From Rhodothermales bacterium (lineage in GTDB: Bacteria > Bacteroidota > Rhodothermia > Rhodothermales > Bin80), in the NCBI GenBank assembly GCA_022822185.1, contig JAJECE010000048.1:7809-71808 (forward strand): a stretch of DNA of 64,000 nt. Reading direction: 5' to 3'. Numbering within the stretch: position 1 is the first letter of the stretch; every line of letters starts with the position of its first letter. The translations under genes were made by a program, and so were the position numbers. Under the pieces are notes generated by a model, which was given only the letters and a program-made list of their open reading frames with translations, ran no database searches and was not told where the DNA came from. This document shows positions 3,191 through 64,000 of this stretch, piece by piece.

Positions 3191-3207
3191 ATTTTTCATT
3201 ATAACTG

Positions 3208-37966: not shown

Positions 37967-38558
37967 GACCATCCTCTTCGTCAAGAGAATAGGCGGGTTT
38001 TTCGGATAGACTTTGATTGCGTGGTGATTGTGAGCGTTCAATTTGGTTTCGCAGGGCTTCGGTTCGCTTCAAAAGGGCTTCAAATTTTTCAGCATCAATT
38101 GGCATAGCATGAAGCCGTTCCAGATATTTGACCCATCGGGTATAGTTTTTCGTCTGATCCGCCGGAATACGAATCCGCTCAAAAAAACGGATCAGTTCCT
38201 GCAGGTATTGAACCTGCTTTGCGGTTTGATCTAGTTGAGTAAGTCCCTGCATTACATGATCAACGGCAATTTTGCCCCGGGCAGAGAGTTTACGGCTAAT
38301 CGTACTCTTTGGCAATGTGGTCCGAATAATTGACTGAACGGCGGGGAGGCATGTTCGGGGCACAAGTTCCAGTTCCAGTTCCAGTGATCGAAACAGTGCC
38401 ACCAAACTCGAAAGCCGCAGATCAACGGCACCGTTTTCAAATTTTGAAATTTGCGCCTGCTGTACACCGGAGATTTCACTCAATTCCCGTTGACTCAGTC
38501 CCAACCTCACTCTCGCTTTTCGGAGAGCAGTACGGAGATGATCGAATTCGTAACTCAT
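37959..38558 (-). CDS. hipB: XRE-family HTH antitoxin (HipB-like) with about 120-aa C-terminal extension
   Basis: 199 aa. HTH LGLSQRELSEISGVQQAQISKFENG in the first ~70 residues. Coupled to hipA. Confidence 0.75.
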   Translation of the reverse strand: MSYEFDHLRTALRKARVRLGLSQRELSEISGVQQAQISKFENGAVDLRLSSLVALFRSLELELELVPRTCLPAVQSIIRTTLPKSTISRKLSARGKIAVDHVMQGLTQLDQTAKQVQYLQELIRFFERIRIPADQTKNYTRWVKYLERLHAMPIDAEKFEALLKRTEALRNQIERSQSPRNQSLSEKPAYSLDEEDGHV

Positions 38559-46160: not shown

Positions 46161-47033
46161 GTGAAGATTATTCGGACAGTTCCAGAAATGCAGGTATACG
46201 CGGAGATGCAGCGTATGCATGGTCACAAATTAGCACTGGTCCCAACCATGGGCAGCCTGCATAAGGGGCATTTGTCTCTTGTAAAACGTGCGCAGGTGGA
46301 AGCAGACCATGTTACGGTGTCTATCTTTGTCAATCCGACCCAGTTTGGGCCTAGTGAAGACTTTGAAGCCTATCCGCGTGATTTTCAGAGAGATTGTGCG
46401 TTGCTGGAGGAGTTAGGCGGGGTCAGTGCGGTCTTCGCTCCGAGCGAGGCAACGCTCTATCCTGCGGGATCCGACCAGCAGCGTGTATGGATCACTTGCC
46501 CGGAAATGTCCAGCCAACTGTGCGGCAAATATAGATCGGGGCATTTCAGGGGAGTTCTGACGGTGGTCATGAAACTGTTCGCAGCGTGCAATCCCCACAT
46601 CGGGGTATTCGGTCTTAAGGACATTCAGCAGTTTGTTCTGCTGAAGAAGATGATTGGGGATTTGTCGCTGAACATAAAAATTATTGGAGGCGATACAGTT
46701 CGTGAAGCGAATGGCCTGGCGTATTCTTCCCGTAATGAGTACCTCACGGCGGAGGAGCGTCATCAGGCAGGGATAATTTCGGAGGCGATCTACTCGGCAG
46801 TCCAGATGATTGAAGCAGGGGAGAAAAATCTTGAAACGGTAACCGGCAAAATACACGAGATGATTGGCAGCGTGCAGCAGGCAAACTTACAGTATGCAGA
46901 GATTGTCACCGCCGGTACACTCCAGCCGATTGAACAATTCATGCCGGGCATGCAGGTGATTGTCGCGCTTGCGGTATATTTTCGGCAGATTCGGCTCATT
47001 GATAATGCTTTTGCTCTTGTTCCGGCGCAGTAG
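46161..47033 (+). CDS. panC: Pantoate--beta-alanine ligase
   Basis: 290 aa, GTG start. LVPTMGSLHKGHLSLV, VSIFVNPTQF, GHFRGVLTVV, FGLKDIQQ. Confidence 0.95.
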   Translation: MKIIRTVPEMQVYAEMQRMHGHKLALVPTMGSLHKGHLSLVKRAQVEADHVTVSIFVNPTQFGPSEDFEAYPRDFQRDCALLEELGGVSAVFAPSEATLYPAGSDQQRVWITCPEMSSQLCGKYRSGHFRGVLTVVMKLFAACNPHIGVFGLKDIQQFVLLKKMIGDLSLNIKIIGGDTVREANGLAYSSRNEYLTAEERHQAGIISEAIYSAVQMIEAGEKNLETVTGKIHEMIGSVQQANLQYAEIVTAGTLQPIEQFMPGMQVIVALAVYFRQIRLIDNAFALVPAQ

Positions 47034-48048
47034 GTTTTCGATCTATGTATGCTTTGGCTGTCTGATTGCGGCCTATCATCCGGCCTATGGCCAGAAAGAT
47101 ACCATGTATCCAATTCTGGAGGATGGTTTATTTGGATTTATCAACAGCAGCGGTGAGGTTATCATTGAACCGAAATATGACGGAGCAAAAATGTCTTCCG
47201 AAGGGCTTGCTGCGGTGCGACTTGGCTACTCGTGGGGATTCGTTGATCTACAGGATTCCGTACGTATCGCGCCGCAATTCTCGTCTGTTTTCCCGTTTTC
47301 GGACGGTATTGCCCGTGTACAGTCTGGGCAGTACTGGACTTTTATTGACAGGAATGGAGAGCGGATTACCGATGAGTATTTCATGTCTGCGTTGGATTTC
47401 AGCAGCGGTTTAGCGCCGGTACGTGTGCGACCGGGCACGGTTGCCGGACTTGAGCCCAAGTGGGGGTTCATTGACCGGGAGGGCGAGATGGTTGTACCGG
47501 ACCGATTTGTTCGTGCGCTCCCGTTCTCGGATGGAATGGCCGCCGCTGAGGTTACCCGAAAGGTGATTGTGATCAGCATTAACACGCGTTGGGGCTTACT
47601 TGCTCCAGACGGTTCATGGATTGTTGAACCGGAATTTCACTCCATGCGGAATCCCTCGGAAGGTCTTGCCCTTGTCCGCAAGGGCCGGCAGCGCGGGTTC
47701 ATTGATGCCACCGGGGCCTTTGTGCTGGAACTGGACTATGAACAGGTTTTTTCGTTCAAAGAAAACCGGGCGCGGGTGAATGAAGGGGGTTTATGGGGAT
47801 TTATTAACCGGAAGGGCGAGGTTGTGGTTGCGCCCGGTTACCAGAGGGCGGATGATTTTTCAAATGGCCGTGCACTGGTGTTAACGGGGGACGGATATGG
47901 ATTTCTGGATTCAACGGGAACCATGGTGATTCCCCCTCAATACGAGAAGGCATCTTCCTTTGATCGGGGGCTTGCCTGGGTCACTCTGGACGGGCAGTCA
48001 GGATACATTGATACGACCGGGATTTTCGTGTGGAGGGAGGACGAGTAG
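47005..48048 (+). CDS. WG-repeat (KWG) protein, secreted
   Basis: Hydrophobic N-terminus from the ATG at 47005; the ORF is open from 46960. At least 6 repeats of the type WGFIDREGEMVVPDRF / WGFINRKGEVVVAPGY / YGFLDSTGTMVIPPQY. Confidence 0.75.
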   Translation: MLLLLFRRSRFSIYVCFGCLIAAYHPAYGQKDTMYPILEDGLFGFINSSGEVIIEPKYDGAKMSSEGLAAVRLGYSWGFVDLQDSVRIAPQFSSVFPFSDGIARVQSGQYWTFIDRNGERITDEYFMSALDFSSGLAPVRVRPGTVAGLEPKWGFIDREGEMVVPDRFVRALPFSDGMAAAEVTRKVIVISINTRWGLLAPDGSWIVEPEFHSMRNPSEGLALVRKGRQRGFIDATGAFVLELDYEQVFSFKENRARVNEGGLWGFINRKGEVVVAPGYQRADDFSNGRALVLTGDGYGFLDSTGTMVIPPQYEKASSFDRGLAWVTLDGQSGYIDTTGIFVWREDE

Positions 48049-48200: not shown

Positions 48201-49244
48201 TCATCGTTCGTTACGATTCTGTATGACAGTGTCCACGAACTCCAACACCGCTGAGCATGTTTTTTCCCATTCTTTACTATTCTTGAAGGACAGCGAGTGG
48301 CCGCCGTGCGGCCATTCCCTGAGATCGACTGACTCACCAAGTCGGCCAAGTGCATCGTCTCCGCCCAACTGCCCGGCTTGCGGCAGTATGCTCACGCTAT
48401 AGATGCCTTCCCCGAGGTAACCGGCCTGCACGCCGAAATAGCCTTTCCAACTCTTTGAACCATTGGGCCCCGGGTCCATAAATCGGAAACTGATCCCTGT
48501 TTTGCCTATCTGTTCCCGTGGGTCCTGCTGTGGTAGACGCTCTCGAATGTCGTTGCACAAACGATCAAAGAACTGTTCGTAGCTGTGCTCTTTCAAGTAG
48601 TGTCGCAAGGCTTGGCGTTGCTCAGCCGCAGTGACGGCACGAGGGCGCATCTGGTTTCCGCCATCTGGGGTCACCTCTATTTGCCGAGCCAATAAGGTCT
48701 CGCCATCCCGACAGTATCCATGAAAGGTGATGACCGAGAGTTCAACTGCTCCTGCTGACACGAATTGCGCCATTCGTTCGGTGGCTTCATCAATGCCAAA
48801 ACCGACCAAGGCCATCCGCGGCGGTAACAAGCGGGACAGATCATCATCTCCGAACATGTCGGCGTACCACTGTTCGAAGTTCTCAATTCGCGGAATACCA
48901 GCTTCCCCCGAGCGATTCGAGATGTGTTTGGCAACTTGTGCCGGGGTCATGGAATTCAGTGCCGAAGCATAATCCAGGATCTGCGTCACGGCATCCCGTG
49001 CGAGGTTGCCACGCTTTAGTTCGTAGACTACCAGACGTCCGTCGCCGTCAACCGCAAGCAAATCCAACCATCCTCCAGCGGTTGGTGTCTGTCGCCCAAC
49101 CAACTGTAGCCCAGGCTCAAGCATTTCTGGATTGGAAACCAGAACGTTCTCAAACTCCCATTCGGTAGGCATCTGTGAGAGCTTTGGAACGAATTCGATT
49201 CTGTTTGATCCGTCTACAGCCCACAACTTGAGTTCCTGAATCAT
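48201..49244 (-). CDS. NucS/DUF91-like PD-(D/E)xK nuclease-domain protein with uncharacterised C-terminal half
   Basis: 347 aa. LVSNPEMLEPGLQLVGRQTPTAGGWLDLLAVDGDGRLVVYELKRGNLARDAVTQILDYA is the D...E-x-K core plus following helix typical of the NucS C-terminal/DUF91 fold. Confidence 0.55.
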   Translation of the reverse strand: MIQELKLWAVDGSNRIEFVPKLSQMPTEWEFENVLVSNPEMLEPGLQLVGRQTPTAGGWLDLLAVDGDGRLVVYELKRGNLARDAVTQILDYASALNSMTPAQVAKHISNRSGEAGIPRIENFEQWYADMFGDDDLSRLLPPRMALVGFGIDEATERMAQFVSAGAVELSVITFHGYCRDGETLLARQIEVTPDGGNQMRPRAVTAAEQRQALRHYLKEHSYEQFFDRLCNDIRERLPQQDPREQIGKTGISFRFMDPGPNGSKSWKGYFGVQAGYLGEGIYSVSILPQAGQLGGDDALGRLGESVDLREWPHGGHSLSFKNSKEWEKTCSAVLEFVDTVIQNRNER

Positions 49245-49605: not shown

Positions 49606-50886
49606 ATGCAAAACTTCCATCGAACACATGTCAAACGCTTGATAGAATTTATATCAGGTACCTCCGACATGCGGCTTATCGCCATTATTGGTCCTCGTCA
49701 GGCTGGCAAAACGACCATTGCACTTCAGGCTCGCCAGAAGTTGGTTGAAGCAGGGTTTACAAGTCAGTACATTGCCATCGACAATCCACATCTAAATCAG
49801 CCGGACTGGCCTGGAGATACAGGCATCTCTGATACCACGCTGATCGAGAAATTTGCGAATTCAAAGACTCTTGTGAACATATGGGAGAGTGCCCGTGAGG
49901 CTTCGCTAAAGTCTCTCCGGGGGCATGTTTTGTTTCTGGATGAAGTTCAACTCATTCCACAGTGGTCAAATTATGTGAAGGGGCTGTGGGACAGAGATCG
50001 TATGGACGGCTATCCCCTCCGCGTGGTAATTCTGGGATCAGCAGTCTGGCAGATGCTTGTTGGCCGTAACGATAGTCTCACGGGTCGTTTCCGTGAGTTA
50101 CCCGTCAGTCACTGGTCATTTAAAGAAATGACCAAGGTATTCGGTCTGACGGCTGAGCAATTTATGTTTTATGGCGGTTATCCTGCCTCCCTGCCCGACG
50201 AATCGGGAAAATCGCTGTTTGATTATTGGCGTGACTATATTGCAAAAACAATTGTGGACTCAGTGATTGGTCGGGACATATTGGGGCTTAAACAGATCAA
50301 GAAACCTGCCCTGATACGCCAATTAATTGACATCGCCCCCCACTACTCTGGCCGAATCATGGCATACAATAAGTTCTTGGGGCTACTTCAAGATAAGGGC
50401 AATGCAACGACGGTTAAACATTACCTGAACCTGCTTTCTAATGCAGGCCTGATTACTACGTTGTCGAGATACACTCCAATGCCACACCTGGGCATCGCCT
50501 CACGCCCCAAGTTTAATGTTCTGAACACGGCACTGATGACGGCACTGTCCGGTTATTCGTTTGAGGAGATACAAATTGACCGGTCTTTTTGGGGCCGTGT
50601 TGTAGAGAGTGCCGTGGGGGCCCATCTATGTAACACGCGGAATACGGCTACCTACATTCATTATTGGCGTGACAAGAATGGCGATTATGAGGTTGATTTT
50701 GTCATCTCACGCGGCCCCCAGCTTGTCGGCGTGGAGGTTAAGAGCAGCAAACAACGGACACACCGTGGATTAGAGGCATTCAAGGATCGTTTTCCGCATG
50801 CCAAAACAATGATCGTGGGCCCAGGTGGCCTTCCGTTCCATGAGTTTTTGTCGTTGAATACCGACGAGTGGATTGAATATCTGTGA
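49606..50886 (+). CDS. AAA+ ATPase (AAA_14-type) with C-terminal DUF4143 nuclease-like domain
   Basis: 426 aa. Walker A IIGPRQAGKTT, Walker B VLFLDEVQ. C-terminal IHYWRDKNGDYEVDFVISRGPQLVGVEVKSSK is restriction-endonuclease-like (D...E-x-K). Confidence 0.85.
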   Translation: MQNFHRTHVKRLIEFISGTSDMRLIAIIGPRQAGKTTIALQARQKLVEAGFTSQYIAIDNPHLNQPDWPGDTGISDTTLIEKFANSKTLVNIWESAREASLKSLRGHVLFLDEVQLIPQWSNYVKGLWDRDRMDGYPLRVVILGSAVWQMLVGRNDSLTGRFRELPVSHWSFKEMTKVFGLTAEQFMFYGGYPASLPDESGKSLFDYWRDYIAKTIVDSVIGRDILGLKQIKKPALIRQLIDIAPHYSGRIMAYNKFLGLLQDKGNATTVKHYLNLLSNAGLITTLSRYTPMPHLGIASRPKFNVLNTALMTALSGYSFEEIQIDRSFWGRVVESAVGAHLCNTRNTATYIHYWRDKNGDYEVDFVISRGPQLVGVEVKSSKQRTHRGLEAFKDRFPHAKTMIVGPGGLPFHEFLSLNTDEWIEYL

Positions 50887-53800
50887 ATCCAATCATGCAG
50901 CGTATATCTCGTACGGTCACACTCCTTGAACCCCAAAATGATCCGCGTTTTGGGAAAGCTGGACTGTCATTGCGAGATTTTGATTCTGATCATGGGTATG
51001 TTCTTCTGGGGGAGCCGGGAATGGGCAAGAGCACAGAGTTTGAATCTGCAATTGATGGATTTGATGGTAGACATTGTATTTCGGCCCGAAGATTTATCCG
51101 GGCCAATTTTGACCGTCACCCAGAATGGCGAACCAAAACAATTTTCATTGACGGGCTTGATGAAATGCGTGTTGGTGGGGGAGATCCAAGAGCAGTATTG
51201 GATAAAATCATTTATGGTATGGAAACATTGGGGATACCTAAATTCCGGTTGTCCTGCCGCTCTGCCAACTGGTTGGGTGCTGGTGACCGGAATGAGCTCA
51301 ATTCGCTTTTAGGCCCAGACAAAATTCCCGTACTCCAATTGGACCCGCTGAATTATGAGGACATTCGGGAGATCGTTTCTCAACGGGAGCAGGATGCAAA
51401 TACGTTCATTCAACAAGCCCATGAGTACGGCATGGATGCCTTACTCGGGAATCCGCAACTGCTTGACTTCTTGATCACATCCGTCAAGGCAAAGGGCTGG
51501 CCTGACAGCCAGTTGAAAATGCTTGAAAATGCATGTCGGGAGCTCGTCCGAGAAAAAAACATTGAGCATCTTGATGCCCAATCATCCAGTTCACTGCAAC
51601 CCCGGGAAGCAATCTTAACTGCAGCCGGAAAGCTTTGTGCGTGCATGCTGATCGCAAACAGGACTGGTTGGGCGGGCAATGATACGGATGACTCCGAGAT
51701 TCTATCTATCCGTGATTTGGAAGGCGACCAAGGTTTCCCCATCCAGGCAGCATTTGATTCAGGGATCTTTGAAGGTTCGCCCAGTTTCAAAGTTCCGATC
51801 CATCGACTTATCGCCGAATTCCTTGGTGCACGCTATCTGCACAAAAAAATCCAGAGAGGCCTAAGCGTCCGGCGTGCTCTCGCCCTTCTCATGGAGCACA
51901 ATGGAATTCTTTTGCCCGATCTAAGAGGACTGGCTGCCTGGCTTGCTGCGCTGAATAATGAGGCGAGAGCAATTCTGATACAGGTCGCTCCAATGACGGT
52001 GGCCTTCCACGGAGATACCAGCAGTTTCAATCCCATTGAGCGAAGTAAACTACTTGCGAAACTGGAACAACAAATCCATTTGAACTCCGACTGGCCTTCC
52101 GCTGCTGCCCTTCGTGCTTTAACCGGCAATGAAGGCATACCAATTATCCAGGATTTAACGAATTCACATGAACGTTCAAAAAACAGGCAAACGCTGGTTT
52201 ATTTGCTCCTTCGGGGATGCTCACAAATGTATCTCGATACGAGCATGTCAGACTGGGAGACCGATCACGAAAGCCTGCTGAATATTGTTCATGATCATAG
52301 TTGGCAATCAAGTGTTCGTTGTGAGGCACTCGGAGCTTTGAGCCGGGTATCTCATCAGATTCCGCAGTGTAGCACTCTATTGAGAGATCTCCTTGAGGAT
52401 GTGCAGGAAAAACGTATATCGGACGAAGAACACGATCTGCGGGGCACATTACTTCATCTTATGTACCCTGACAGACTACGCCCTGCGGAGATATGGGATT
52501 ACCTCGTGGCGGGGCCGGTGACTGCTTATTTGGGTGGTTATCGAAACTTCTTTGCAAGCCTCGTTGATAGGTCAAATGAGAGCGATGTCAAAGAATTACT
52601 CAACTCTCTTTGCGATCGTGCCTCCGAAGCCATTCCAAAATTAGAGGATCAAAAACTTGCAGATGTTGTGCTCCGGCTTCTTGCAAGGGGGTTGGAATTA
52701 TTTGGATGTAAATTGAGTATCCCTGAGTTGTATCAATGGTTTACGCTAGTTGAATTCTACCATAATTCGTTACAACTGTCCTCGGTTCACACTTTAAACT
52801 CAAGTTTTAGCCAGCACGATGAAGCGGACAGTGCAATCCGTAATTGGCTGAATCAGCATAAGCGTATCCAGTACAGTCTTATTGAACTTGGTCTATCCAT
52901 TGAAGAAGCGAGCATTGGGAGCAAAGTTCTTATTGAAACTATAGGATGCAAATTTGTGGGCAGGAATGCGCCAGAAGGATTTCGATTGTGGTGTCTTGAG
53001 CGTGCGGTACAGCTCTGGGACTCAAATCAAAATGTGGCAAGAGAACTCGCATCATGGTCCGTCTCTAATCTGATACAAGTGGGCGGGGAGCCTCCCCTCT
53101 CGGATAAGGAGGTCAGTTCCGTAGTGTCTGGTACGTCTGGATTGGTCAAGTGGAATGATCAACGTCTGAAGGAAAGGGCGAAGTCTGAACTTGAGTTCAG
53201 TGAGATCAGGAAGAAGCAGAAGGAAATCCAAAGTGTCCATCAAAAAGAAAAGCAGGGAAAACTTAAAACTCTTCGCCTACAACAAACTGCATTGGCAAAG
53301 GGGCAGTGCATGCCTGTAATTCTTGATGAACTTGCTCATGTATACTTTGATAATCCCGGCATAAGTGATCATAATCCGAAGACTTGTCTGCGGTCATACT
53401 TTGAAGGAGATGAGGAACTCTTAGAGGCAACGCTGGATGGGTTTCGCAGCCTGCTGGACCGGGATGATCTCCCGGATCTTGGTCAAATTGCCCAGTTCTA
53501 TGAAGATGGTCATCGATCCTATTTTGCACTCCCTTTTCTTGCAGGAATGGAAGAGGCATATAAGGTTAATAAGGATCTGAGCCATCTCTCCGAAACGGGG
53601 ATTCGGCGTGCATTGGGATTTTATCTGACTACAGACTCTCCTCGTCAGCACTACTATCATTTAATCAATTATATGGGCGGTGACAGCACATCTCCCGCAT
53701 GGTATAAGCAGGCATTAAAGCACTATCCAGAGGCTGTGGCTGATTCGTTGGTTTCTGTGCACAACGCAACGGTTCGCTCCAAAAACCCGCCGAGTGTCCA

Positions 53801-55097
53801 CATGCATGAGATGGTCTATGACCGGGCCTACGCTGATGTGGCAAAACTTGCGGTGTCCCGAATGTTTACCGTATTCCCGTCCAGATGCAATGCACGTAAG
53901 CTGGAATCTCTGAGTTTGGTCATTTGGAGTGCGATTCGGAACAACGGAATGTCTAAAAAAGAATTGCGGAGTATTATTTCAAAACGACTCAATCGTAAGC
54001 GGATGGATATAGGCCAACAAGCCCAATGGCTAGGTGCAGGACTATTCGTCGACAGAGACATCTATATTCCAATGCTGATCGACTTTCTCTCTACAGGAGA
54101 GGAAGTTCGTATGCACCATGTTATTCATTTTCTCGTTCCTACGAACTATAAACTGCTTACTCCGCAAAACATCAGTGAATGGAATTCTGATGAGATTCGC
54201 CAGCTTATCCAAACATTCGGGAGACGAATGTACCCGCCTATTTCTCAAGAACGTGCAGGTATTGTTAGGGGTGAGCAGAGAATCAGAATGGAATTTCAGT
54301 TTCTCCTTACACACTGGCTCGGAGAACTAAAAAAACGTACATGTGATGATGCAAGGAAGAATCTGGATATGCTGGTATCCGATCCTAGTCTATCGGTATG
54401 GAAGCAAGAGATTGTACTCGCTCAGGAAGAACAAGCAAAACATCGCCGTACGGCAAAACATTCGGATCTAAGCTTAGAGAAAATTCAGAAAACACTGAAT
54501 TGTGGCTTCCCAGCAAATGCTGCAGACGTTGTAGGCCTGACGCTTGATGCCCTTGAAAAGTTGGCAGGCGATATACGTAATGGTCCAGCCAGTGCATGGC
54601 GTCAGTACTGGGACTGGCACCAGAATCCTCGTATTCCCTCAAACCCAAAGCCCGAAAACGACTGCCGGGATCTATTACTTTCGGCCTTAGCAGCGATGCT
54701 TGAAAGATATCAAGTTGATGCACAGCCGGAGGGTCGCTACGCAGATGAACGAAGGGCGGATATCCGAATATCGTACGGCTCCGATCTAGCGATCCCAATT
54801 GAAATCAAGAGAAATTTAAGCATAGATTTGTGGCGCGGCATCTCTGAGCAACTTGTACCAAAATACACAGGAGATCCAAAGTCTCATGGCTATGGAATTT
54901 ATCTGGTGTTCTGGTTTGGAGCAGACTACATGAAGATTGGGGCCCCAGATGGAGGGATTCCCGAAGAAGTAATAGAACTAAAGGATTCACTGGAAAAGCG
55001 AGTTGATCCAAAACTTCGCAAAAGAATCCATGTCGTGATCATTGATGTGGCTCCGTCTGGAAGATTTGCGGAGAATCAGCCATCAAAGAATTGCTAG
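50883..55097 (+). CDS. Giant NACHT/STAND P-loop NTPase with long helical middle region and C-terminal PD-(D/E)xK nuclease-like domain
   Basis: 1404 aa. The GTG at 50883 overlaps the upstream stop codon (GTGA); the alternative ATG is at 50895. Walker A GEPGMGKST (aa 43-51). NACHT-type Walker B TIFIDGLDE (aa 86-94). HEAT-like and coiled-coil segments. C-terminal RADIRISYGSDLAIPIEIKR (D1293, E1307, K1309) followed by GYGIYLVFWFG. Confidence 0.7.
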   Translation: MNPIMQRISRTVTLLEPQNDPRFGKAGLSLRDFDSDHGYVLLGEPGMGKSTEFESAIDGFDGRHCISARRFIRANFDRHPEWRTKTIFIDGLDEMRVGGGDPRAVLDKIIYGMETLGIPKFRLSCRSANWLGAGDRNELNSLLGPDKIPVLQLDPLNYEDIREIVSQREQDANTFIQQAHEYGMDALLGNPQLLDFLITSVKAKGWPDSQLKMLENACRELVREKNIEHLDAQSSSSLQPREAILTAAGKLCACMLIANRTGWAGNDTDDSEILSIRDLEGDQGFPIQAAFDSGIFEGSPSFKVPIHRLIAEFLGARYLHKKIQRGLSVRRALALLMEHNGILLPDLRGLAAWLAALNNEARAILIQVAPMTVAFHGDTSSFNPIERSKLLAKLEQQIHLNSDWPSAAALRALTGNEGIPIIQDLTNSHERSKNRQTLVYLLLRGCSQMYLDTSMSDWETDHESLLNIVHDHSWQSSVRCEALGALSRVSHQIPQCSTLLRDLLEDVQEKRISDEEHDLRGTLLHLMYPDRLRPAEIWDYLVAGPVTAYLGGYRNFFASLVDRSNESDVKELLNSLCDRASEAIPKLEDQKLADVVLRLLARGLELFGCKLSIPELYQWFTLVEFYHNSLQLSSVHTLNSSFSQHDEADSAIRNWLNQHKRIQYSLIELGLSIEEASIGSKVLIETIGCKFVGRNAPEGFRLWCLERAVQLWDSNQNVARELASWSVSNLIQVGGEPPLSDKEVSSVVSGTSGLVKWNDQRLKERAKSELEFSEIRKKQKEIQSVHQKEKQGKLKTLRLQQTALAKGQCMPVILDELAHVYFDNPGISDHNPKTCLRSYFEGDEELLEATLDGFRSLLDRDDLPDLGQIAQFYEDGHRSYFALPFLAGMEEAYKVNKDLSHLSETGIRRALGFYLTTDSPRQHYYHLINYMGGDSTSPAWYKQALKHYPEAVADSLVSVHNATVRSKNPPSVHMHEMVYDRAYADVAKLAVSRMFTVFPSRCNARKLESLSLVIWSAIRNNGMSKKELRSIISKRLNRKRMDIGQQAQWLGAGLFVDRDIYIPMLIDFLSTGEEVRMHHVIHFLVPTNYKLLTPQNISEWNSDEIRQLIQTFGRRMYPPISQERAGIVRGEQRIRMEFQFLLTHWLGELKKRTCDDARKNLDMLVSDPSLSVWKQEIVLAQEEQAKHRRTAKHSDLSLEKIQKTLNCGFPANAADVVGLTLDALEKLAGDIRNGPASAWRQYWDWHQNPRIPSNPKPENDCRDLLLSALAAMLERYQVDAQPEGRYADERRADIRISYGSDLAIPIEIKRNLSIDLWRGISEQLVPKYTGDPKSHGYGIYLVFWFGADYMKIGAPDGGIPEEVIELKDSLEKRVDPKLRKRIHVVIIDVAPSGRFAENQPSKNC

Positions 55098-57582
55098 TCT
55101 CAGACAAAACTGGGGGTATAGGCCCCGGCGACACTAAGCATTGACTAAAACAATCCAAAAGGGATAAACACGCTCAACGAAGGCCGGGGCATAAACACCC
55201 CAGCGGCGTTTATTCTAAGGTGTAGCCAATCGGTTCAATGCCTCGGTGAAGTCTGGTGCGTATTCAGATGAATGCACAGATGGGACATAAACCCCGGCGA
55301 CACTCCTGGGTGCAGGAACAACCTGCGCTACGCAAACAGCCGCTCAACGAAGGCCGGGGCATAAACCCCGGCGACACGCGCATCCTCGGTCAGATTCCGG
55401 GCCCAGCCGTTTTCCGCTCAACGAAGGCCGGGGCATAAACCCCGGCGACACTAGGCCTGTACGGGCCTGTAGAGATGCTGTAGGCCTCGCTCAACGAAGG
55501 CCGGGGCATAAACCCCGGCGACACTGGTGAACCACACTGAGAGACCGTTAGACTATGACGCGCTCAACGAAGGCCGGGGCATAAACCCCGGCGACACCCC
55601 CGTGCCGCTGCGGCAACGTACACTCGCGCCAGGCGCGCTCAACGAAGGCCGGGGCATAAACCCCGGCGACACAATAAGGCACGAAAGCAGAAGGATGAGT
55701 AAGGTCATCGCTCAACGAAGGCCGGGGCATAAACCCCGGCGACACCAGCGGCCTGTAGCGGCCTGTAGGACTCTACCACACTCGCTCAACGAAGGCCGGG
55801 GCATAAACCCCGGCGACACAACAATGCCCACAGGGCACCATACACAATGAAAGACGCTCAACGAAGGCCGGGGCATAAACCCCGGCGACACCTTCCGGCA
55901 GTCTATGATTTCCCTGGTTATAAGGTCGCTCAACGAAGGCCGGGGCATAAACCCCGGCGACACTACACGGATCGGTTCAACACACAGCAGGGAGTTTGCA
56001 TCGCTCAACGAAGGCCGGGGCATAAACCCCGGCGACACGAGGGGTTGCAGGCAGAGTCAGAGAGACTGGCAGTAGACGCTCAACGAAGGCCGGGGCATAA
56101 ACCCCGGCGACACTTCCCTTTGGATGTCCACTCCATAACCTGCTTTGAGCGCTCAACGAAGGCCGGGGCATAAACCCCGGCGACACATTCCTTCTGCATA
56201 ATCAACAACCGAATGATTTTAGCGCTCAACGAAGGCCGGGGCATAAACCCCGGCGACACCCAAGAATTTCGACCTGCCTAGCCACATTAGGAGGAACGCT
56301 CAACGAAGGCCGGGGCATAAACCCCGGCGACACCCATTTCGGTGATTCCGAGAAGCAGCGCATTGTTGGCGCTCAACGAAGGCCGGGGCATAAACCCCGG
56401 CGACACCGGGATTGTGCGAAAATCCAGGTTGCGAAAGCGCCCGCTCAACGAAGGCCGGGGCATAAACCCCGGCGACACGCCCACGCTTCCGGATCGTCAA
56501 CATGAGCAACCTCAATCGCTCAACGAAGGCCGGGGCATAAACCCCGGCGACACACCAACCGCCCAGAGGGGCACCAAACACATGACACGCCGCTCAACGA
56601 AGGCCGGGGCATAAACCCCGGCGACACTCCGTAGTCGTCTTCAAATGCATCGCAGTACTGCGTCGCTCAACGAAGGCCGGGGCATAAACCCCGGCGACAC
56701 GTCATCTGCAGACGATTACAAGCAGCAGGTGAACACGCTCAACGAAGGCCGGGGCATAAACCCCGGCGACACCGGAAGTACTGCACAAACCGCACGGTGG
56801 ATGTCAGGACGCTCAACGAAGGCCGGGGCATAAACCCCGGCGACACCCGCTTGTGCGCCCAATGTGGTCGACTGCATGTCGCCCGCTCAACGAAGGCCGG
56901 GGCATAAACCCCGGCGACACACCCAGAGCTCACGCCCAAGTTCTACGGTCCTAGTCACGCGCTCAACGAAGGCCGGGGCATAAACCCCGGCGACACTCGC
57001 TCATCGGCAAGAAATTGATGTTTACCGCAAACACGCTCAACGAAGGCCGGGGCATAAACCCCGGCGACACGGCTTGGTAGGGCTTGGTAGGGCGCTGTAG
57101 GGCGCTCGCTCAACGAAGGCCGGGGCATAAACCCCGGCGACACCTATTCAAGCCCTGGGAGTCATTAATTCGGATCCGGCGCTCAACGAAGGCCGGGGCA
57201 TAAACCCCGGCGACACTTCCGTCTAAGATCATGGGGGATAAATTCTCAGTGTACGCTCAACGAAGGCCGGGGCATAAACCCCGGCGACACATCCTGGGCA
57301 TGATGAGAAACTGCCCGCTTAGACACCGCTCAACGAAGGCCGGGGCATAAACCCCGGCGACACTGGACAAACTCCAGCGTTTCCGCCGTTTCTTTGCCTC
57401 GCTCAACGAAGGCCGGGGCATAAACCCCGGCGACACCCGGATTAGTCTCCTTCACCAGCGCCATTGATGCTCGCTCAACGAAGGCCGGGGCATAAACCCC
57501 GGCGACACAGCCTGAGTTCCTTCGGGCAATCTGCAATTATGGGTACGCTCAACGAAGGCCGGGGCATAAACCCCGGCGACAC
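55098..57582 (-). CRISPR. CRISPR array: 31 intact 37-bp repeats, 30 spacers of 35-39 bp, plus 3 degenerate trailer repeats
   Basis: Plus-strand repeat CGCTCAACGAAGGCCGGGGCATAAACCCCGGCGACAC. Minus-strand repeat GTGTCGCCGGGGTTTATGCCCCGGCCTTCGTTGAGCG with internal stem GCCGGGG/CCCCGGC. Intact copies run from 55341 to 57582 at a 72-76 bp period. Degenerate copies lie at 55098-55134, 55171-55207 and 55267-55303. Orientation is inferred from the cas2-proximal AT-rich leader and from repeat decay at the far end. Confidence 0.97.
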
Positions 57583-57752: not shown

Positions 57753-58043
57753 TTATATTACCCAGGGATCTCCTAATCCGTGAGATTGAGTGACACCGAA
57801 TCTCGTCTTCGAGTCATCAATATCACCGGGAAACCGATATATGATCACGGAGTCTTTTCGCTTATCAATTACATCCTCAATCTCAACGGTCATTCTGGCG
57901 AAGCGAGTGGGGGACAGTCTGCATTCAAAGACTGAAAATTGTGTTCGCTGGCCATATTTTTCGCAAATCTCCGCAATGCGTCGCAATCTTGAAGCCCCAG
58001 AGTTTTCTGTATCGGCAATGTCATATGTTACGAGAATGTCCAT
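57753..58043 (-). CDS. cas2: CRISPR-associated endoribonuclease Cas2
   Basis: Start at the ATG at 58043 (MDILVTYDIADTENSGASRLRRIAEICEKYGQRTQFSVFECRLS), the canonical Cas2 ferredoxin-fold N-terminus. The ORF is open further upstream, but that part overlaps cas1. Confidence 0.9.
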   Translation of the reverse strand: MDILVTYDIADTENSGASRLRRIAEICEKYGQRTQFSVFECRLSPTRFARMTVEIEDVIDKRKDSVIIYRFPGDIDDSKTRFGVTQSHGLGDPWVI

Positions 58044-58048
58044 CGCTT

Positions 58049-59065
58049 CTATGGCAAGACAAATGGAGGATATGACGGTAGATCTTTCCGCAGATAACGT
58101 GCCAGTAAAGTAGCCTGTACAGATGGTAATGCCCAACGACCTACATGTCTATTCAATAGTTGATGGCGAATTTCGGATCCCTTATGCTCCTCCCATATTT
58201 TTATCAGTTTTGTTCGTCCATTATCATTGAGGTACACTCCTCCGCCCGGTGTTTCAACAAAATGGGATTGAATGATTTGTCTTCGCCGAATCAATGACAC
58301 GACAAATCGATCAGTAAGTGCACGAAACTCCTCGGCAAGATCAAGCGCAAGCGATGGCCGTCCAGATCTTGGACGATGGAAAAACCCCATTTGATAATCA
58401 AGACCGACAGATTCAGCGGCCCCAATACATTCAGTCACAAGCATTCCATAGCAAAATCCAAGTAACGCGTTAACAGGGTCACGCGGCGGTCTGCGAGATC
58501 TCGCTGGAAATTTAAAGTCATATGGGGTGACTATCTGATTAAGAACACGGAAATAAATTCTTGCTGCGTCGCCCTCAATGCCGCGAACATGGTCACTAGT
58601 TGATGCTTGCGCCAAGCGTTCAACTCGTTTGTGTATCAACTTACCCTGTCTAGCAAGTTTCTCAGAATCTTGCGGATTGCTTGCATCCCGTGACCATCTT
58701 TCCACTACCTTCCGGCTGTTTTGAATTTTAGCTGCAACAATATTTTTCGAAAGTTCAAGCGACAGTGACTCATTCGCTACTACTTGAAATAATGCCGTTC
58801 GTAAGTGAATATTGCCACTGGTTCCAGCATGGACTACGAATCGGATTTTTCCGCTCATCTGCATAGAAGATACGCGAACGCCATGGCGAACGCACGCATC
58901 AATAGCCTGTGTGGTAATCTGTGCACCGCCCAGTAATACTAACGCATCAATTGCTTCCAGTGGAATACGCTGTCTTCCTTCAGGCGAAGACACCATGAGA
59001 GCGCCTCTACGGTGCTTAATGCGTGCACGGTGATTGCGAACATATGCTGTACTCAAGTATCGCAT
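58049..59065 (-). CDS. cas1: CRISPR-associated integrase Cas1
   Basis: 338 aa. Typical N-terminal beta domain (ARIKHRRGALMV...IPLEAIDALVLLGGAQITTQAIDACVRHGVRV). C-terminal catalytic region (NALLGFCYGML...GLDYQMGFFHRPRSGRPSLALDLAEEFR). Confidence 0.95.
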   Translation of the reverse strand: MRYLSTAYVRNHRARIKHRRGALMVSSPEGRQRIPLEAIDALVLLGGAQITTQAIDACVRHGVRVSSMQMSGKIRFVVHAGTSGNIHLRTALFQVVANESLSLELSKNIVAAKIQNSRKVVERWSRDASNPQDSEKLARQGKLIHKRVERLAQASTSDHVRGIEGDAARIYFRVLNQIVTPYDFKFPARSRRPPRDPVNALLGFCYGMLVTECIGAAESVGLDYQMGFFHRPRSGRPSLALDLAEEFRALTDRFVVSLIRRRQIIQSHFVETPGGGVYLNDNGRTKLIKIWEEHKGSEIRHQLLNRHVGRWALPSVQATLLARYLRKDLPSYPPFVLP

Positions 59066-59670
59066 CCAAAAACGAGTTCCGTCAGGTACTTATTTACTCT
59101 GTTTGGCGAACTCGTCAGTTCGGGTAGGCAGTATTGGAGAAATTGGCACTGGCTACATCTTTTGTCATTCGGTGCTTCTGGGAGTTCTGCGGTCAGAATT
59201 TGCTCTCGAATTTGTTGAACAATTTCTTTAACTTCTTCCCTGAGGGTAGATGTAAAGTCAATCTGGACGCGACGCCTGGGGCCACCATACCATATAAAAC
59301 CATAAGAAATGTTAGTGTTGAGCATTTCTTCAAGACATAATGCTTGTGCACACAACTGAAGATCTGCAGTTACTCCATGACGTACACCTGACTTATATTC
59401 AACGGGATGAATGTTTTCACCCACTATCTCGACCGCATCGGCACGTCCAGACAGCCCCAATGCTTCGGACCAAAGGGGTATAGCCCGAAGAACCTGTCGT
59501 CCTCTTTCTTGGCGATGTTGTCCGCTATCTACTCTGCGATGTGCTCGTTTTCCGTGAGTGGTATGTGGGTTATCACTCCATATGCTGTCGCAATGAATTA
59601 AAGCACATTGCCTCGGACAATAGGCAAAATGCTCAATGGCTGATATCAGAATAACAGGATCAGAATTCAC
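59053..59670 (-). CDS. cas4: CRISPR-associated exonuclease Cas4 (stand-alone)
   Basis: 205 aa, GTG start. ISAIEHFAYCPRQCALIH, plus a C-terminal Cys cluster CSQCQFLQYC (four-Cys Fe-S pattern) and a RecB-like core (DAVEI...HPVEYKSG). Confidence 0.9.
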   Translation of the reverse strand: MNSDPVILISAIEHFAYCPRQCALIHCDSIWSDNPHTTHGKRAHRRVDSGQHRQERGRQVLRAIPLWSEALGLSGRADAVEIVGENIHPVEYKSGVRHGVTADLQLCAQALCLEEMLNTNISYGFIWYGGPRRRVQIDFTSTLREEVKEIVQQIREQILTAELPEAPNDKRCSQCQFLQYCLPELTSSPNRVNKYLTELVFGCDT

Positions 59671-60569
59671 AGTCTTTCGCTGCCAAATGCCCTTGTAGGA
59701 TCATTATCCACTTTTCTTTCGAACTGAACACTCCGCCAGCCCTCATGAATTCCCAACAGATCCCATGATGGCTTGTCTTTGGGATCCCAGATGTCCATGA
59801 GTGCGTCTATGGCGTTATAGTCAAGGGGCTGGCTCCATGCTGGCCAATAAAACTGAAGGTCTTTTTGGTTTGATGTATTTTTCCGCCATCCCCGCTGTCG
59901 TTTTCCAGTTTTTGTTTTTCGCCGATCTAATTGTTGATCAATCCCGTTTCCGCGAACCGGGAACATGGAAAGACCAAAAAATGCAAGTATTTCAATAATG
60001 GGGTCAGTCATAGGATTGGTGTCATCAGACAATGACCCAAGTCGAGTTTGATCAAAGCCTAAGCCATTTTTCTTAATTCGAGTAGCATAGCCCCTCAGTG
60101 ACTCTTGTACTCGAGTTTCTGAAAGGTCTAATTTTTTCTGAAGAGAGAATAATCTATCGTGTAATGTTAGCCCTTTTGGCGCGGATGGATCAAAGGGAGC
60201 ATGTTCAACATTGCCCTCTTTGTTGATACAGAGATCGGACATTGTTGACGATAATGTCCACGAGTGAGGATGTGGACGGGCCATTTTCGCTCTCTGCCTG
60301 AACACTTCTGCCGGAACATTTCGCTTCATCTGCTCAGTATCCCTCCAATGCTTAGCTATCGGTAGGTCATTGAGTACATCTCTGGATGGCCACGACTCGA
60401 CAAGAGTATTAACTGGATGGGTTATATCTGTTGTTAATACAGCTGTTGGTTCCGAATCTGCTGTCCAGTGCAGGCGAATTCTAGCATCCAGAAAGGTAGT
60501 TCCAACTGCTGCAAGCCAGGCATTAATCCATTTAGCAGGCAATCCTGGGCAGATAATTTCCTGAAGCAT
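59667..60569 (-). CDS. Type I-G (I-U) accessory/large-subunit candidate, Csb3-like
   Basis: 300 aa. Coupled on both sides (GTGA overlap with cas4; 2 nt after the cas3 stop codon). The N-terminus CPGLPAKWINAWLAAVG recalls the Csx17/Csb3 N-terminal motif. Assignment rests mainly on position and is tentative. Confidence 0.5.
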   Translation of the reverse strand: MLQEIICPGLPAKWINAWLAAVGTTFLDARIRLHWTADSEPTAVLTTDITHPVNTLVESWPSRDVLNDLPIAKHWRDTEQMKRNVPAEVFRQRAKMARPHPHSWTLSSTMSDLCINKEGNVEHAPFDPSAPKGLTLHDRLFSLQKKLDLSETRVQESLRGYATRIKKNGLGFDQTRLGSLSDDTNPMTDPIIEILAFFGLSMFPVRGNGIDQQLDRRKTKTGKRQRGWRKNTSNQKDLQFYWPAWSQPLDYNAIDALMDIWDPKDKPSWDLLGIHEGWRSVQFERKVDNDPTRAFGSERL

Positions 60570-60571
60570 TA

Positions 60572-63397
60572 TTAATCTGTGTTTGAAGGTATATTTATTC
60601 CGGCAGAGACTGCATGGTCTGAAAGCCTCAATATGGCTTCAAGTAAAGCCAATCCCCATGGCCCGAAATGTTCATTGAGTTTCTGGAAGCGGGAAGGCTG
60701 TTCCCAGTCCACGATTCTGAGGTCAGCCGGAGCACTCACAATCTCACCTGTAATGGATTGATCAATCGTGAGTGATGTGTTATCTACAACCGGTTTGATA
60801 ATCGGCCGACCTTTTCCATGGTGGCTAATTATCAGATGCATTAGAAGTTTTCTTTTCATTGGATCTCCCCACTGTGGGTTCTTGTCGAGCCAGGCACGGA
60901 CCAAGTGCGCCGATAAGGCTTCGTGGCGGCCGTGTCTTGGCCATCCAGAAGCAATGCGCCTTGATTCGCGCTTATGGTAGGGGGTATCCGACTTGGCCAA
61001 GCAAGTATCTGGATTGTGCCAGTCAGGGTCAAGCCATCGCTGAAACCGCTCATCGGCTTTGCCAATATCGTGCAGTTTGCCGGCAAATCTCACAACCTCA
61101 GTCAATTCCCCCGATATTCCAATACGATCACAGATTGATTGAGTCAAACGAGACACGGCTTCACCATGCGGTTCCAGTTTAACTGCAGAGTATGCAAGAG
61201 ACCGCTCATCGTAATCATCATTTGGCTTTTCAGGCGGTGACTTCATCACTTTTAGACGAGACACCTCTTTGTAGGGAGTTAGAACTCCCGTTTTTACATC
61301 CAATGAATTGACAAATTCACCCCATTCTTCAGGGGCCCAGCCATGCGGGACTGACTCGGTGATCTTACGTAAAATTTTGGCCATTGCATCGATCTGTTCC
61401 TGGGGGGCAATCTCAATGGCATCATGAGGGGATTTTCCCAGCACAGTATTCAGTAGATCCTGTAGTAACGTATCCACTGTAATCCCTATACGCCCAAATG
61501 CTTCCGCATTAAGGGGCAGTCCGTGGCCATTTAGAGATACATCCAGAACCGGATCGGTTGCTTCGTGATTCCAACCGAATTCATCCATGAGCCCACAATC
61601 TGAACGCAACACTATTTGATCTCTTGGCCGGAGCAATCCTAGCTCAATCTCTTCTACGGTTATCCCGTCAGAGCCTAAACGAGATACCTTTTCGCTGCCC
61701 CAGCTCTTTTTCCAGGCATTGCGAAACTCGCCAATGGGGACATCAATTGATTCACGGTCACTAGCGCGTGGCCATAAACGGTTCCTGTCTTTTGGTACAT
61801 GGGCTCGCCAAATTACAGATACGAATTTTTGTGTGCCGCTGATACCGCTAAAATATGGTTCAACAGGGGCTTCTCCTTCTACCGGATAAGAAGTCTTTAT
61901 CCATTCCCACAGAATCCCAGGCAAGAGTTCAGGTGCGCTGCTGTTAAGACCATCACATGGTGAACCCAAGATAGTCTGCACATGCGCAGGGGATAAATTA
62001 ATCAATTTTGAAGCATTATTTTTGCGGTGGAGATCCAGTCTGCCAAGCAGGATCTGAGGTTCCTTCCCGTAGACCGGCCAGACATCATTTTTGCGGCTAT
62101 CTGTCGGTGTATGTACATATACGGCGTGAGCCTCTTCAAATCTTCCAAAGCGATTTAGCCGGCCAAGCCGTTGCGTAAGTGCGCGAACTCCGCATTGTTC
62201 TGTAACCAGATATTTCGCATCAATATCTGCCCCAACCTCCAGTGTCTGCGTAGCGACGACAATAAGGTGCTGAGTACGTTTACAGTTTTTATCATCTGAT
62301 GAATGCATTCCCTCAAGAATGCGTTGTCGCATTTGCCCTGCTTCCCGTTCTCGGATTCGCCCTGTTAGAAGCAACACCTCGGCATCTTTCATCAACTTCG
62401 TAACATGCCCAAACGTCATCCTCGCAATCCTGGGAGTGTTACAAAAAACGATGCAGGTTGCCGGGGGAGCATGTTGCAGTAGTTTAAATGTAGCTTCCGC
62501 CACAGGATTTTTATTTTTCTGTACGTTTTTGACAACTCTTATTTCAAGCAGCTTTGTAGCATTCAAGCGTTTTTTTATTTCTGGATGTTTCTCGTCTTCC
62601 TCATTGAGCAGGAATCTATCCTCGCTGGCTGGATCACCGGTAGCAGTCAATTGAACCAGTGTAGCCCGTAGACGAGCTTCATTCAGAATGGGATGTATGT
62701 CTGGTGTGCAGGCAGCAATCGCTGAGTGTAATGTCCTTAAATGCGGGGTTAAGTGGGCCTCGTCCAGCAAGATTAAACTATCGGTTCCTGCCATTGCGGC
62801 ATCAATTGATCGCATTCCTGAACTGGATCCATAGCCCCGAAATAATAACCGGGAACCATACATTGGAAGCGTTGCCAGAAGAATAGCCGGCTGAGAAGGA
62901 CTGCTAGGTCGATGAGACGCAATCCCTCCGCGAAGCCGAATTACCTCAAGCGGCTCTGCACTGCTATATCCGGCGATATGTCGTAACCGATCTGCTACGA
63001 TCTTGATAATTTGCCTCTCCTGTGGTTTAAGTTCAAAATTCTCGTGATCAGGATTACGAAGCATATGCCCTATTTTACATGCGTGGGCAAACGTTGAATC
63101 TACAAGCAATCTCCGGTTGACCACCCACCAGATGCGCGTTGGTGCAATTCGTTGGGCTGGTTCACATTCAGCTTGCGAGGCCAACCACCATATTGCAATA
63201 TCTAAACAGGTAGTTTTGCCGAGACCGGTAGGTATACCAATTTCAGAGTACCACCTACCCGTGGACGCAATTTGGTTGGCTAAGCGGGATTGCCATGGGA
63301 AGGGGGGGCGCCCGTTAATCGCTTTATAGAATTCGTCGAAAGTTGGCATCGCCGTGTGCATAAACATATCTCTCAATTTCAGAGATTTATGTAACAA
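60572..63397 (-). CDS. cas3: Cas3 helicase with C-terminal HD nuclease domain (type I-G/I-U architecture)
   Basis: 941 aa. The ORF starts at TTG 63397; the first ATG is at 63367. Helicase motif I GIPTGLGKTT, motif II LILLDEAHL, later helicase motifs (ATQTLEVGADID). HD domain at the C-terminus (AGKLHDIGKADERFQ ... ISHHG ... LRLSDH). Confidence 0.9.
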   Translation of the reverse strand: MLHKSLKLRDMFMHTAMPTFDEFYKAINGRPPFPWQSRLANQIASTGRWYSEIGIPTGLGKTTCLDIAIWWLASQAECEPAQRIAPTRIWWVVNRRLLVDSTFAHACKIGHMLRNPDHENFELKPQERQIIKIVADRLRHIAGYSSAEPLEVIRLRGGIASHRPSSPSQPAILLATLPMYGSRLLFRGYGSSSGMRSIDAAMAGTDSLILLDEAHLTPHLRTLHSAIAACTPDIHPILNEARLRATLVQLTATGDPASEDRFLLNEEDEKHPEIKKRLNATKLLEIRVVKNVQKNKNPVAEATFKLLQHAPPATCIVFCNTPRIARMTFGHVTKLMKDAEVLLLTGRIREREAGQMRQRILEGMHSSDDKNCKRTQHLIVVATQTLEVGADIDAKYLVTEQCGVRALTQRLGRLNRFGRFEEAHAVYVHTPTDSRKNDVWPVYGKEPQILLGRLDLHRKNNASKLINLSPAHVQTILGSPCDGLNSSAPELLPGILWEWIKTSYPVEGEAPVEPYFSGISGTQKFVSVIWRAHVPKDRNRLWPRASDRESIDVPIGEFRNAWKKSWGSEKVSRLGSDGITVEEIELGLLRPRDQIVLRSDCGLMDEFGWNHEATDPVLDVSLNGHGLPLNAEAFGRIGITVDTLLQDLLNTVLGKSPHDAIEIAPQEQIDAMAKILRKITESVPHGWAPEEWGEFVNSLDVKTGVLTPYKEVSRLKVMKSPPEKPNDDYDERSLAYSAVKLEPHGEAVSRLTQSICDRIGISGELTEVVRFAGKLHDIGKADERFQRWLDPDWHNPDTCLAKSDTPYHKRESRRIASGWPRHGRHEALSAHLVRAWLDKNPQWGDPMKRKLLMHLIISHHGKGRPIIKPVVDNTSLTIDQSITGEIVSAPADLRIVDWEQPSRFQKLNEHFGPWGLALLEAILRLSDHAVSAGINIPSNTD

Positions 63398-63406
63398 CCT
63401 TAGTTC

Positions 63407-64000
63407 TTATTTTGGCGGGATGCAAAGCCCGAATCCACGTTGCCGACCGGATCCGATTAGAACCGGACCATGAACTGGCTGGGCGAACCGTATCCAGATA
63501 TGAGAATAGGGCAAGGCAGGTTTGTTAGGTCGGTTTACTTCAACGGGTGCTAAGTCAACTGCACCTGAAATCAATGGTGTGCGAGAGGATTGGAAGTCAA
63601 TCGGTTTGGGTAGTCCTGCGTGACGGCACCATCTGGCTATTTCGCCTAAGTCGATAGTTCTGCGGCGCTCATGGATGGCAGGGAATGCGGTTATCCATTC
63701 CTCGGATAACTTGAGCCACCTCCATGAATTTGCAGCAATTGGACGGTCATTGTGGGTGTGAGGCTCAGGATGAGGCGCAACGGATACATTGAGCATTGTT
63801 CCAGTAATTTGCCTTATAGCAAGTGCTGCGTTACGAGATCGTTCACACTCTATTGGGCAGCTTTTGGGAGGCATCCATAATGCTATGCCATGAATTCGTC
63901 CTTTTGATGTTGGATAACCCACATCCGGAAGAGCCAGATATCGTGCAATCTCATAACCTTTGTCACGAAATCCGTGGCCATGCAGAACCTGGGGTGGTTC
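63407..64000 (-). CDS. csb2: Csb2 (Cas5/Cas6-fusion, GSU0054 family), 5'-truncated by the window edge
   Basis: The frame stays open to position 64000 (...HGHGFRDKGYEIARYLALPDVGYPTSKGRIHGIALWMPP). The C-terminus ends with the glycine-rich loop IGSGRQRGFGLCIPP, typical of Csb2/Cas6-like proteins. Confidence 0.65.
   Translation of the reverse strand, partial: EPPQVLHGHGFRDKGYEIARYLALPDVGYPTSKGRIHGIALWMPPKSCPIECERSRNAALAIRQITGTMLNVSVAPHPEPHTHNDRPIAANSWRWLKLSEEWITAFPAIHERRRTIDLGEIARWCRHAGLPKPIDFQSSRTPLISGAVDLAPVEVNRPNKPALPYSHIWIRFAQPVHGPVLIGSGRQRGFGLCIPPK

Follow-up and report, generated by a model that had tools for sequence, protein, structure and literature searches.

A divergent Erebus (EruA)-like NACHT protein follows a conserved upstream AAA_14-DUF4143 gene in an uncultured Rhodothermales genome

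The antiphage systems Erebus and Hypnos and the protein bNACHT64 are grouped in one family, Avs10 (Lee et al., Nature 2026, PMC13581612; bioRxiv PMC12803255). Avs10 triggers cell death on sensing the HK97-fold major capsid protein of phages, which it binds at the capsid A-domain, on the interface that forms pentons and hexons (Lee et al. 2026, PMC13581612, PMC12803255), and its toxicity is abolished by mutating or deleting the effector (Lee et al. 2026). Avs sensors are TPR-like helical domains that envelop their target (Lee et al. 2026). Within the STAND NTPases, a D[GAS]hDE signature sets NACHT proteins apart from the others; C-terminal effectors have already been described among bacterial NACHT proteins as the rarer arrangement, and a curved repeat region is predicted to place such an effector where N-terminal ones sit (Kibby et al. 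2023). Here we describe a STAND gene at 50883..55097 (plus strand) of a 64,000-nucleotide stretch of contig JAJECE010000048.1 (positions 7,809 to 71,808; assembly GCA_022822185.1, Rhodothermales bacterium), hereafter called the window. Translated from the GTG at 50883, it encodes a protein of 1404 amino acids. Judged by its sequence, the gene belongs, as a divergent member, to the Erebus (EruA)/Avs10/bNACHT64 group of single-chain NLR-like antiphage receptors, and within a two-gene unit it comes second, after a gene for an AAA_14 ATPase fused to DUF4143.

The family assignment came from the NCBIfam model NF058535 antiphage_EruA ("NACHT domain-containing antiphage protein EruA", Erebus system), an equivalog model with a cutoff of 1000 bits. 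It matched the STAND protein with an E-value of 2.4e-216 and 721.7 bits, in a single stretch that aligns residues 31-1389 with profile positions 19-1317 of 1318. Since this score lies below the cutoff, we treat the protein as a divergent relative and not as an equivalog; it is about 32% identical to proteins that score above the cutoff. A second antiphage model, NF058534 antiphage_HyoA (Hypnos), matched residues 146-791 (E 6.6e-41). When the whole protein and four segments of it were compared with Pfam and PADLOC, nothing usable was returned (only NPHP3_N, E 0.22, and a non-significant HEAT_PBS match in Pfam, E 0.67), and a profile search of PDB sequences with full-length and C-terminal alignments gave nothing meaningful.

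The STAND gene begins with GTGA, a 4-nt overlap with the preceding gene that holds both its own start codon and the TGA stop codon of that gene. Translation from the ATG at 50895, which is in frame, would give an alternative product of 1400 amino acids, and this form is the public gene call (P0001, 100% identical); residue positions below refer to the 1404-residue form unless the 1400-residue form is stated. A first interpretation of this DNA, made from the letters and open reading frames without database searches (the sequence-only reading), had cited several peptide strings. All of them were located in the translation of 50883..55097, namely GEPGMGKS at residue 43, DGLDE at residue 90, SVRCEALGALSRV at residue 477, KERAKSELEF at residue 763 and, toward the C-terminus, ENDCRDLL at 1258, RADIRISY at 1291, IEIKR at 1306 and GYGIYLVFWFG at 1336. 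Scans for promoters and terminators gave matches at chance level only.

The sequence-only reading had also argued that the protein leaves no room for an N-terminal effector, and our analysis bears this out. The P-loop starts at residue 43, so that at most 42 residues precede it with either start codon, and the DNA upstream belongs to another gene in another frame. We considered a cryptic N-terminal effector that would be reached through an upstream start codon, and ruled it out: across 84 related loci, the nearest upstream in-frame stop codon lies a median of 51 codons from Walker A. Neither is the upstream gene a hidden N-terminal domain of the STAND protein, as it lies in another frame with a stop codon of its own, and in all loci the two genes are separate. 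Thus, the protein does not follow the canonical tripartite layout, in which the effector is N-terminal to the NTPase.

From this layout the sequence-only reading had proposed an inverted STAND order, with the NTPase first and a nuclease last. The order itself stands, in that the NTPase comes first and a nuclease-like module comes last, while its novelty does not: because the EruA profile itself runs from an NTPase to a C-terminal domain, this arrangement is the standard one of the family. Nor is the architecture unusual, for the curated antiphage_EruA model matches from end to end and places the protein in a common, annotated bNACHT clade, and over 3,500 database proteins share its length and layout. 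A different activation geometry, which the reversed order had been thought to imply, is neither required nor new in view of the equivalent effector position predicted by Kibby et al.

The NTPase (NACHT) module comprises approximately residues 1-400 (50883..52082, plus strand; the boundary is approximate). Its Walker A motif, or P-loop, reads GEPGMGKS (residues 43-50; 51009..51032, plus strand), with the G, G and K invariant in 28 aligned homologues. The Walker B motif carries the NACHT signature in the form DGLDE (residues 90-94; 51150..51164, plus strand; D86, G87, L88, D89 and E90 in the 1400-residue numbering), and all five residues are invariant in the same alignment. The protein therefore has both the P-loop and the D[GAS]hDE-type Walker B by which the NACHT clade is defined. 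The Pfam NACHT model (PF05729) gave no match in the window protein. Among the N-termini of ten homologues, sub-threshold matches to NACHT (E 0.024-0.16) occurred in three and to NPHP3_N in three; nSTAND was also sub-threshold.

Conservation differs along the protein. Mean pairwise identity is 0.46 in the NTPase and 0.52 in the C-terminal block, which is the best conserved part, and it falls to 0.34-0.37 in the variable middle (approximately residues 400-1249; 52083..54629, plus strand), the least conserved part. Such low conservation fits a diversifying sensor, and we presume that the middle region is a helical sensor of this kind. The HEAT-like sequence and the coiled coil that the sequence-only reading had suggested for it are tentative labels, backed by no more than the non-significant HEAT_PBS match (E 0.67).

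The C-terminal module, residues 1250-1396 (54630..55070, plus strand), is a putative PD-(D/E)xK-like nuclease, as suggested by its AlphaFold2 topology, its conservation and its Foldseek match lists. Two AlphaFold2 models were built, each with a 17-sequence alignment. The first covered residues 1199-1404 (206 residues) and reached a predicted local distance difference test score (pLDDT) of 86.3 and a predicted template modelling score (pTM) of 0.85; the second covered the core, residues 1250-1396 (147 residues), with a pLDDT of 81.6 and a pTM of 0.79. DSSP assigned helix-strand-strand-strand-helix-strand-helix-strand to both, reproducing the alpha-beta-beta-beta-alpha-beta order that had been read from the letters. 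Five putative catalytic residues, all encoded on the plus strand, are placed as in the canonical PD-(D/E)xK arrangement. E1258 (54654-54656) opens helix 1 and is kept in all 84 homologues compared; D1293 (54759-54761) lies at the start of strand 2 and is kept in 80; E1307 (54801-54803) and K1309 (54807-54809), separated by one isoleucine in strand 3, are each kept in 82; and Q1323 (54849-54851), in helix 2, is kept in 83. These 84 homologues include plasmid copies, and their overall identity is as low as ~27-31%.

Foldseek searches with the 206-residue model returned AAA+ lid matches mixed with nucleases, for which reason the core of 147 residues was modelled separately. With the core alone, the top of the PDB list consisted mostly of PD-(D/E)xK proteins: PspGI, SfsA (probability 0.92), Hjc (0.97), PaqCI (0.85), McrC, BspD6I, Can2, DdmD, Mus81, a CdiA-CT toxin, NucS/EndoMS, EcoO109I and EcoRV. 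The best E-values were 9e-3 (PDB) and 3.5e-3 (BFVD). A Pfam scan of 17 C-terminal domains with E-values up to 10 yielded noise only, and the domain of the window protein had no match in Pfam or among PDB sequences. Because topology and conservation agree, a predicted restriction-endonuclease-type fold with an intact active site at the C-terminus of the STAND protein is well supported; assignment of the domain to one particular nuclease family is not. The domain order of NTPase, variable region and PD-(D/E)xK-like module is supported, and a C-terminal nuclease effector is the most likely reading.

Variants of this module were also seen. One or more of the D, E and K residues are lost in four paralogues (L006, L014, L022 and L040; L014 is protein P0043, which reads HRRHHV...IIVRK); such copies may be in decay or may have a regulatory role. 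Two other proteins are matched by the last ~280 residues of the STAND protein: a "hypothetical protein" of 289 aa that stands alone on plasmid pAB510e of Azospirillum sp. B510 (L097, 4989..5858) and, at its C-terminus, a 1169-aa protein on a Vibrio campbellii plasmid (L098, 2283..5792). The module may thus occur outside full-length EruA-like proteins, or these two may be gene remnants.

The sequence-only reading of 50883-55097 made no mention of the gene directly upstream. This gene (49606..50886, plus strand), whose stop codon overlaps the STAND start, encodes a 426-aa protein with matches to the Pfam families AAA_14 (E 2.6e-19) and DUF4143 (E 5.4e-27), and over residues 4-423 it matches the PADLOC candidate PDC-S01 (PDLC04791) with an E-value of 7.4e-124; NCBIfam gave no model for it. 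DUF4143 (COG1373) has been placed in the PD-(D/E)xK superfamily (Steczkiewicz et al. 2012, PMC3424549). Every one of the 81 assessable related loci, meaning those with enough upstream sequence, has a partner homologue (40-82% identical) directly upstream of the STAND gene in the same orientation. Six more loci, from a different branch, have the same arrangement, and three of their six STAND proteins (P0130, P0136 and P0150) pass the EruA cutoff, at 1023-1061 bits. Of 84 loci, 62 show a 4-nt overlap between the stop codon of the partner and the start codon of the STAND gene. In the partner, the motifs for Walker A (GPRQxGKTT), Walker B (VLxxDEVQ) and the nuclease (EVDFV...EVKS) are at least 90% conserved, and the pairwise identities of the two genes are correlated (Mantel r 0.92, a value reached in 0 of 999 permutations). 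The other neighbours of the paired loci are unrelated to one another. In one pseudomonadal locus (L065, Pseudomonadales), the partner (2557..3668) is truncated and split between two frames, and the STAND protein beside it passes the EruA cutoff with 1006 bits; the broken copy reflects either decay or an assembly error.

These observations bear on whether the two genes belong together at all. They could instead be independent defence genes that travel together, a stand-alone PDC-S01-type system followed by a self-sufficient single-gene Erebus. PADLOC does give the upstream family a phage-defence candidate of its own, and the main text of the Avs10 papers describes Avs activation with no mention of a partner gene. 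Moreover, six plasmid homologues of the STAND gene, from cultured Pantoea, Vibrio, Ralstonia, Bradyrhizobium, Agrobacterium and Rhizobium (all Proteobacteria), have no partner nearby by either annotation or tblastn. However, such fixed coupling is not normal for unrelated defence genes of an island: adjacency in all 81 assessable loci and the six additional ones spans many phyla with constant order and strand, most loci keep the stop/start overlap, and the divergence of the two genes runs in parallel. We therefore consider their independence unlikely.

Another possibility is that the upstream ATPase-nuclease is the true effector, acting in trans, and that the C-terminus of the STAND protein is a non-catalytic module for DNA binding or oligomerisation. 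The upstream protein has a textbook nuclease motif (EVDFV...VEVK) as well as intact Walker motifs, and the superfamily placement of DUF4143 (PMC3424549) agrees with such a role; the fold matches of the STAND C-terminus to known nucleases are statistically weak, and its D/E/K residues are missing from the few paralogues named above. Yet the E...D...ExK...Q set is kept in at least 80 of the 84 homologues, including the solo plasmid forms that have no partner, and it lies in the most conserved block of the protein. The toxicity of published Avs10 also needs its own effector domain (Lee et al. 2026). An effector in trans is, on balance, quite improbable.

It is possible, if somewhat short of probable, that the partner functions with the STAND receptor and has so far gone undescribed. 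In a literature search covering papers other than the Erebus-defining one (van den Berg 2024), none was found that links DUF4143 to Erebus. On an equally tentative footing, an Erebus/Avs10-type receptor would usually be a two-gene system, in which the coupled AAA_14-DUF4143 ATPase-nuclease would serve the NACHT receptor as an obligate or modulating partner. With the same reserve, it could for example be recruited upon activation as a second nuclease, help in assembly or act as a brake. If this were true, the published single-gene picture would represent only a reduced, plasmid-type form.

The published and tested Avs10 and other Avs/NLR proteins provide a basis for proposing how the STAND protein could act. 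The variable middle would be a helical sensor that wraps around a conserved protein of the phage, with the HK97-fold major capsid protein as the likeliest target. Binding would free the protein from autoinhibition, upon which the NTPase (NACHT) module would drive oligomerisation. The C-terminal nuclease domains, clustered in this way, would then cut DNA, and the infection would be aborted at the cost of the cell. On the basis of gene linkage only, the upstream ATPase-nuclease would take part too, be it as co-effector, regulator or assembly factor of the receptor. We regard as probable the combination of the domain order, the active-site-like residues, the operon and the family membership with this mechanism of sensing, oligomerisation and nuclease action.

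Several points weigh against this account. The STAND protein falls short of the EruA equivalog cutoff (721.7 versus 1000 bits), and its homology does not guarantee the same function as that of the tested EruA/Avs10 proteins. Searches of Pfam, PADLOC and PDB sequences recognise neither its NTPase nor its C-terminal domain, and among the Foldseek matches of the latter none has E<1e-3, the TM-scores being at most 0.48. The sensor varies more than any other part of the protein, so the major capsid protein may not be its trigger. Finally, the six partnerless plasmid homologues indicate that the partner is not universally required.

The STAND family is large. The window protein matched 713 proteins at E<=1e-5, of which the 120 best are nearly all full-length (~1400 aa), and for a gammaproteobacterial relative the number is at least 3,545 (E<=1e-20). 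Pfam PF28130 (DUF8371) is present in most of the proteins listed, full-length homologues included. More than 560 loci of the family were found in species-representative genomes. The closest relatives come from Rhodothermales metagenome-assembled genomes, the best being 75% identical with conserved gene order. Metagenome-assembled genomes with the family (L005-L084) belong to many phyla, among them Rhodothermales, Gemmatimonadota/Palauibacter, Latescibacterota, Chloroflexota, Acidobacteriota, Nitrospinota, Dadabacteria, Binatia and Gammaproteobacteria. Many of their isolate names resemble those of what we take to be sponge or coral microbiome studies. Two or three STAND paralogues, ~50% identical, coexist in several genomes; OZ244823.1 has three, and CBDHCQ010000004.1 has two in fetched ranges ~1.5 kb apart. 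A distant blastn comparison of the Pantoea plasmid gene with E. coli genomes gave no match.

Alternatively, the protein could be a STAND NTPase that acts outside defence, in signalling or regulation for instance, and merely resembles antiphage NLR-like proteins: many copies lie among housekeeping genes, the window protein scores under the EruA equivalog cutoff, and defence and non-defence STAND clades are interspersed (Lee et al. 2026). The homology to EruA nevertheless extends over the full length, and the nuclease-like catalytic residues are kept in the C-terminal domain. In addition, several genomes hold two or three paralogues, the family spans many phyla and occurs on plasmids and beside transposases, and defence genes adjoin the STAND gene in the window, as Shedu and HEPN genes do on one plasmid. 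A non-defence role is very unlikely in the face of these features.

The window is chromosomal, with housekeeping genes that include TonB-dependent receptors, bshC, aroB, fumarase, panC and a sulfatase. From ~48.2 kb onward it contains a small defence cluster, made up of a PDC-S11 gene, the ATPase/STAND pair, a CRISPR array and cas genes. The first of these (48201..49244, minus strand) encodes a 347-aa protein with a NucS C-terminal-like nuclease domain, which matches PADLOC PDC-S11 (E 4e-31); the gene directly precedes the ATPase/STAND pair and is read in the opposite direction. Two further genes were noted outside the cluster. The gene at 46960..48048 (plus strand), after panC (46161..47033, plus strand), has a product in which seven WG-containing beta-propeller repeats were recognised (E 2.8e-78). 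With the mechanically assigned TTG as its start, the gene would overlap panC by 74 nt at the end of the latter, so translation probably begins further downstream. About 11 kb upstream of the defence cluster lies a gene for a kinase toxin of the HipA family (36746..38041, minus strand; HipA_C, E 2e-47).

On its other side, the STAND gene is followed by a CRISPR array (55341..57582) with 31 copies of the 37-nt repeat CGCTCAACGAAGGCCGGGGCATAAACCCCGGCGACAC at a period of 73-74 nt. The array begins ~240 nt past the STAND stop codon. Decayed repeat remnants are found from ~55114, within ~20 nt of that codon, and these degenerate repeats indicate that the old end of the array abuts the STAND gene. 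Beyond the array lie cas genes of type I (57753..63397), all on the minus strand: Cas2 (within 57753..58136), Cas1 (58049..59065), Cas4 (59053..59670) and Cas3 (60572..63397; 941 aa, with the helicase before the HD domain). A 300-aa gene without assignment (59667..60569, minus strand) lies between Cas4 and Cas3, and a further open reading frame without assignment (63407..63922) follows.

With an array and Cas2, Cas1, Cas4 and Cas3 genes so close by, the STAND protein might be an accessory of the adjacent type I CRISPR-Cas locus, all the more as CRISPR-associated STAND clades are mentioned by Lee et al. 2026. Among all fetched loci, however, Cas1 or a repeat near the STAND gene occurs only in the window and in one closely related genome (L001/L005), and every other locus has unrelated neighbours. 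Since the linkage is confined in this way, we rejected a CRISPR-accessory role, which we hold to be exceedingly improbable.

As first stated, the finding of an NTPase-first, nuclease-last STAND protein adds little, this being the standard layout of a family already shown to be antiphage and capsid-sensing. What the analysis documents is that the EruA-like family is very abundant, multi-copy and spread over many phyla in uncultured marine genomes, many of which, by our own reading, look like those of sponge symbionts. It also provides candidates for the nuclease active site at the level of single residues (E1258, D1293, E1307, K1309 and Q1323). Further work could be worthwhile only on the conserved two-gene arrangement, which gives a concrete lead: if the partner works with the receptor, models for the control of C-terminal-effector NLR-like proteins would need a second component.

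Compared with the canonical Avs1-4 and most bNACHT proteins, the window protein follows the same STAND logic of a P-loop NTPase switch combined with a large variable sensor, and restriction-endonuclease-type effectors are common there; unlike those proteins, whose effector is N-terminal, it has its P-loop after only ~40 residues and its nuclease-like domain at the C-terminus. The upstream gene matches the COG1373/AAA_14-DUF4143 family (PADLOC PDC-S01) over its full length, whereas PDC-S01 is a PADLOC candidate on its own and the gene described here is fixed before an EruA-like gene, with stop and start codons overlapping. Hypnos HyoA is the second NACHT antiphage model that matches the STAND protein, and in homologues the match reaches the C-terminal end of the HyoA profile; yet this match is much weaker and partial, and ~190 extra N-terminal positions of the HyoA profile are unmatched. 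Erebus EruA/Avs10/bNACHT64 is the closest system. The differences from it are the lower score (722 versus 1000 bits) and an identity of about one third to the passing proteins, the source, which is an uncultured Rhodothermales-like genome known here through sequence data while the tested hosts are proteobacterial, and the partner gene, of which the main text of the Avs10 paper makes no mention. The likenesses are an end-to-end hidden Markov model match at a similar length (~1350-1400 aa), an NTPase at the extreme N-terminus, a long middle and, at the C-terminus, a conserved domain common to both. The likeness extends to the upstream AAA_14/DUF4143 gene, which the cutoff-passing P0130, P0136 and P0150 also have.

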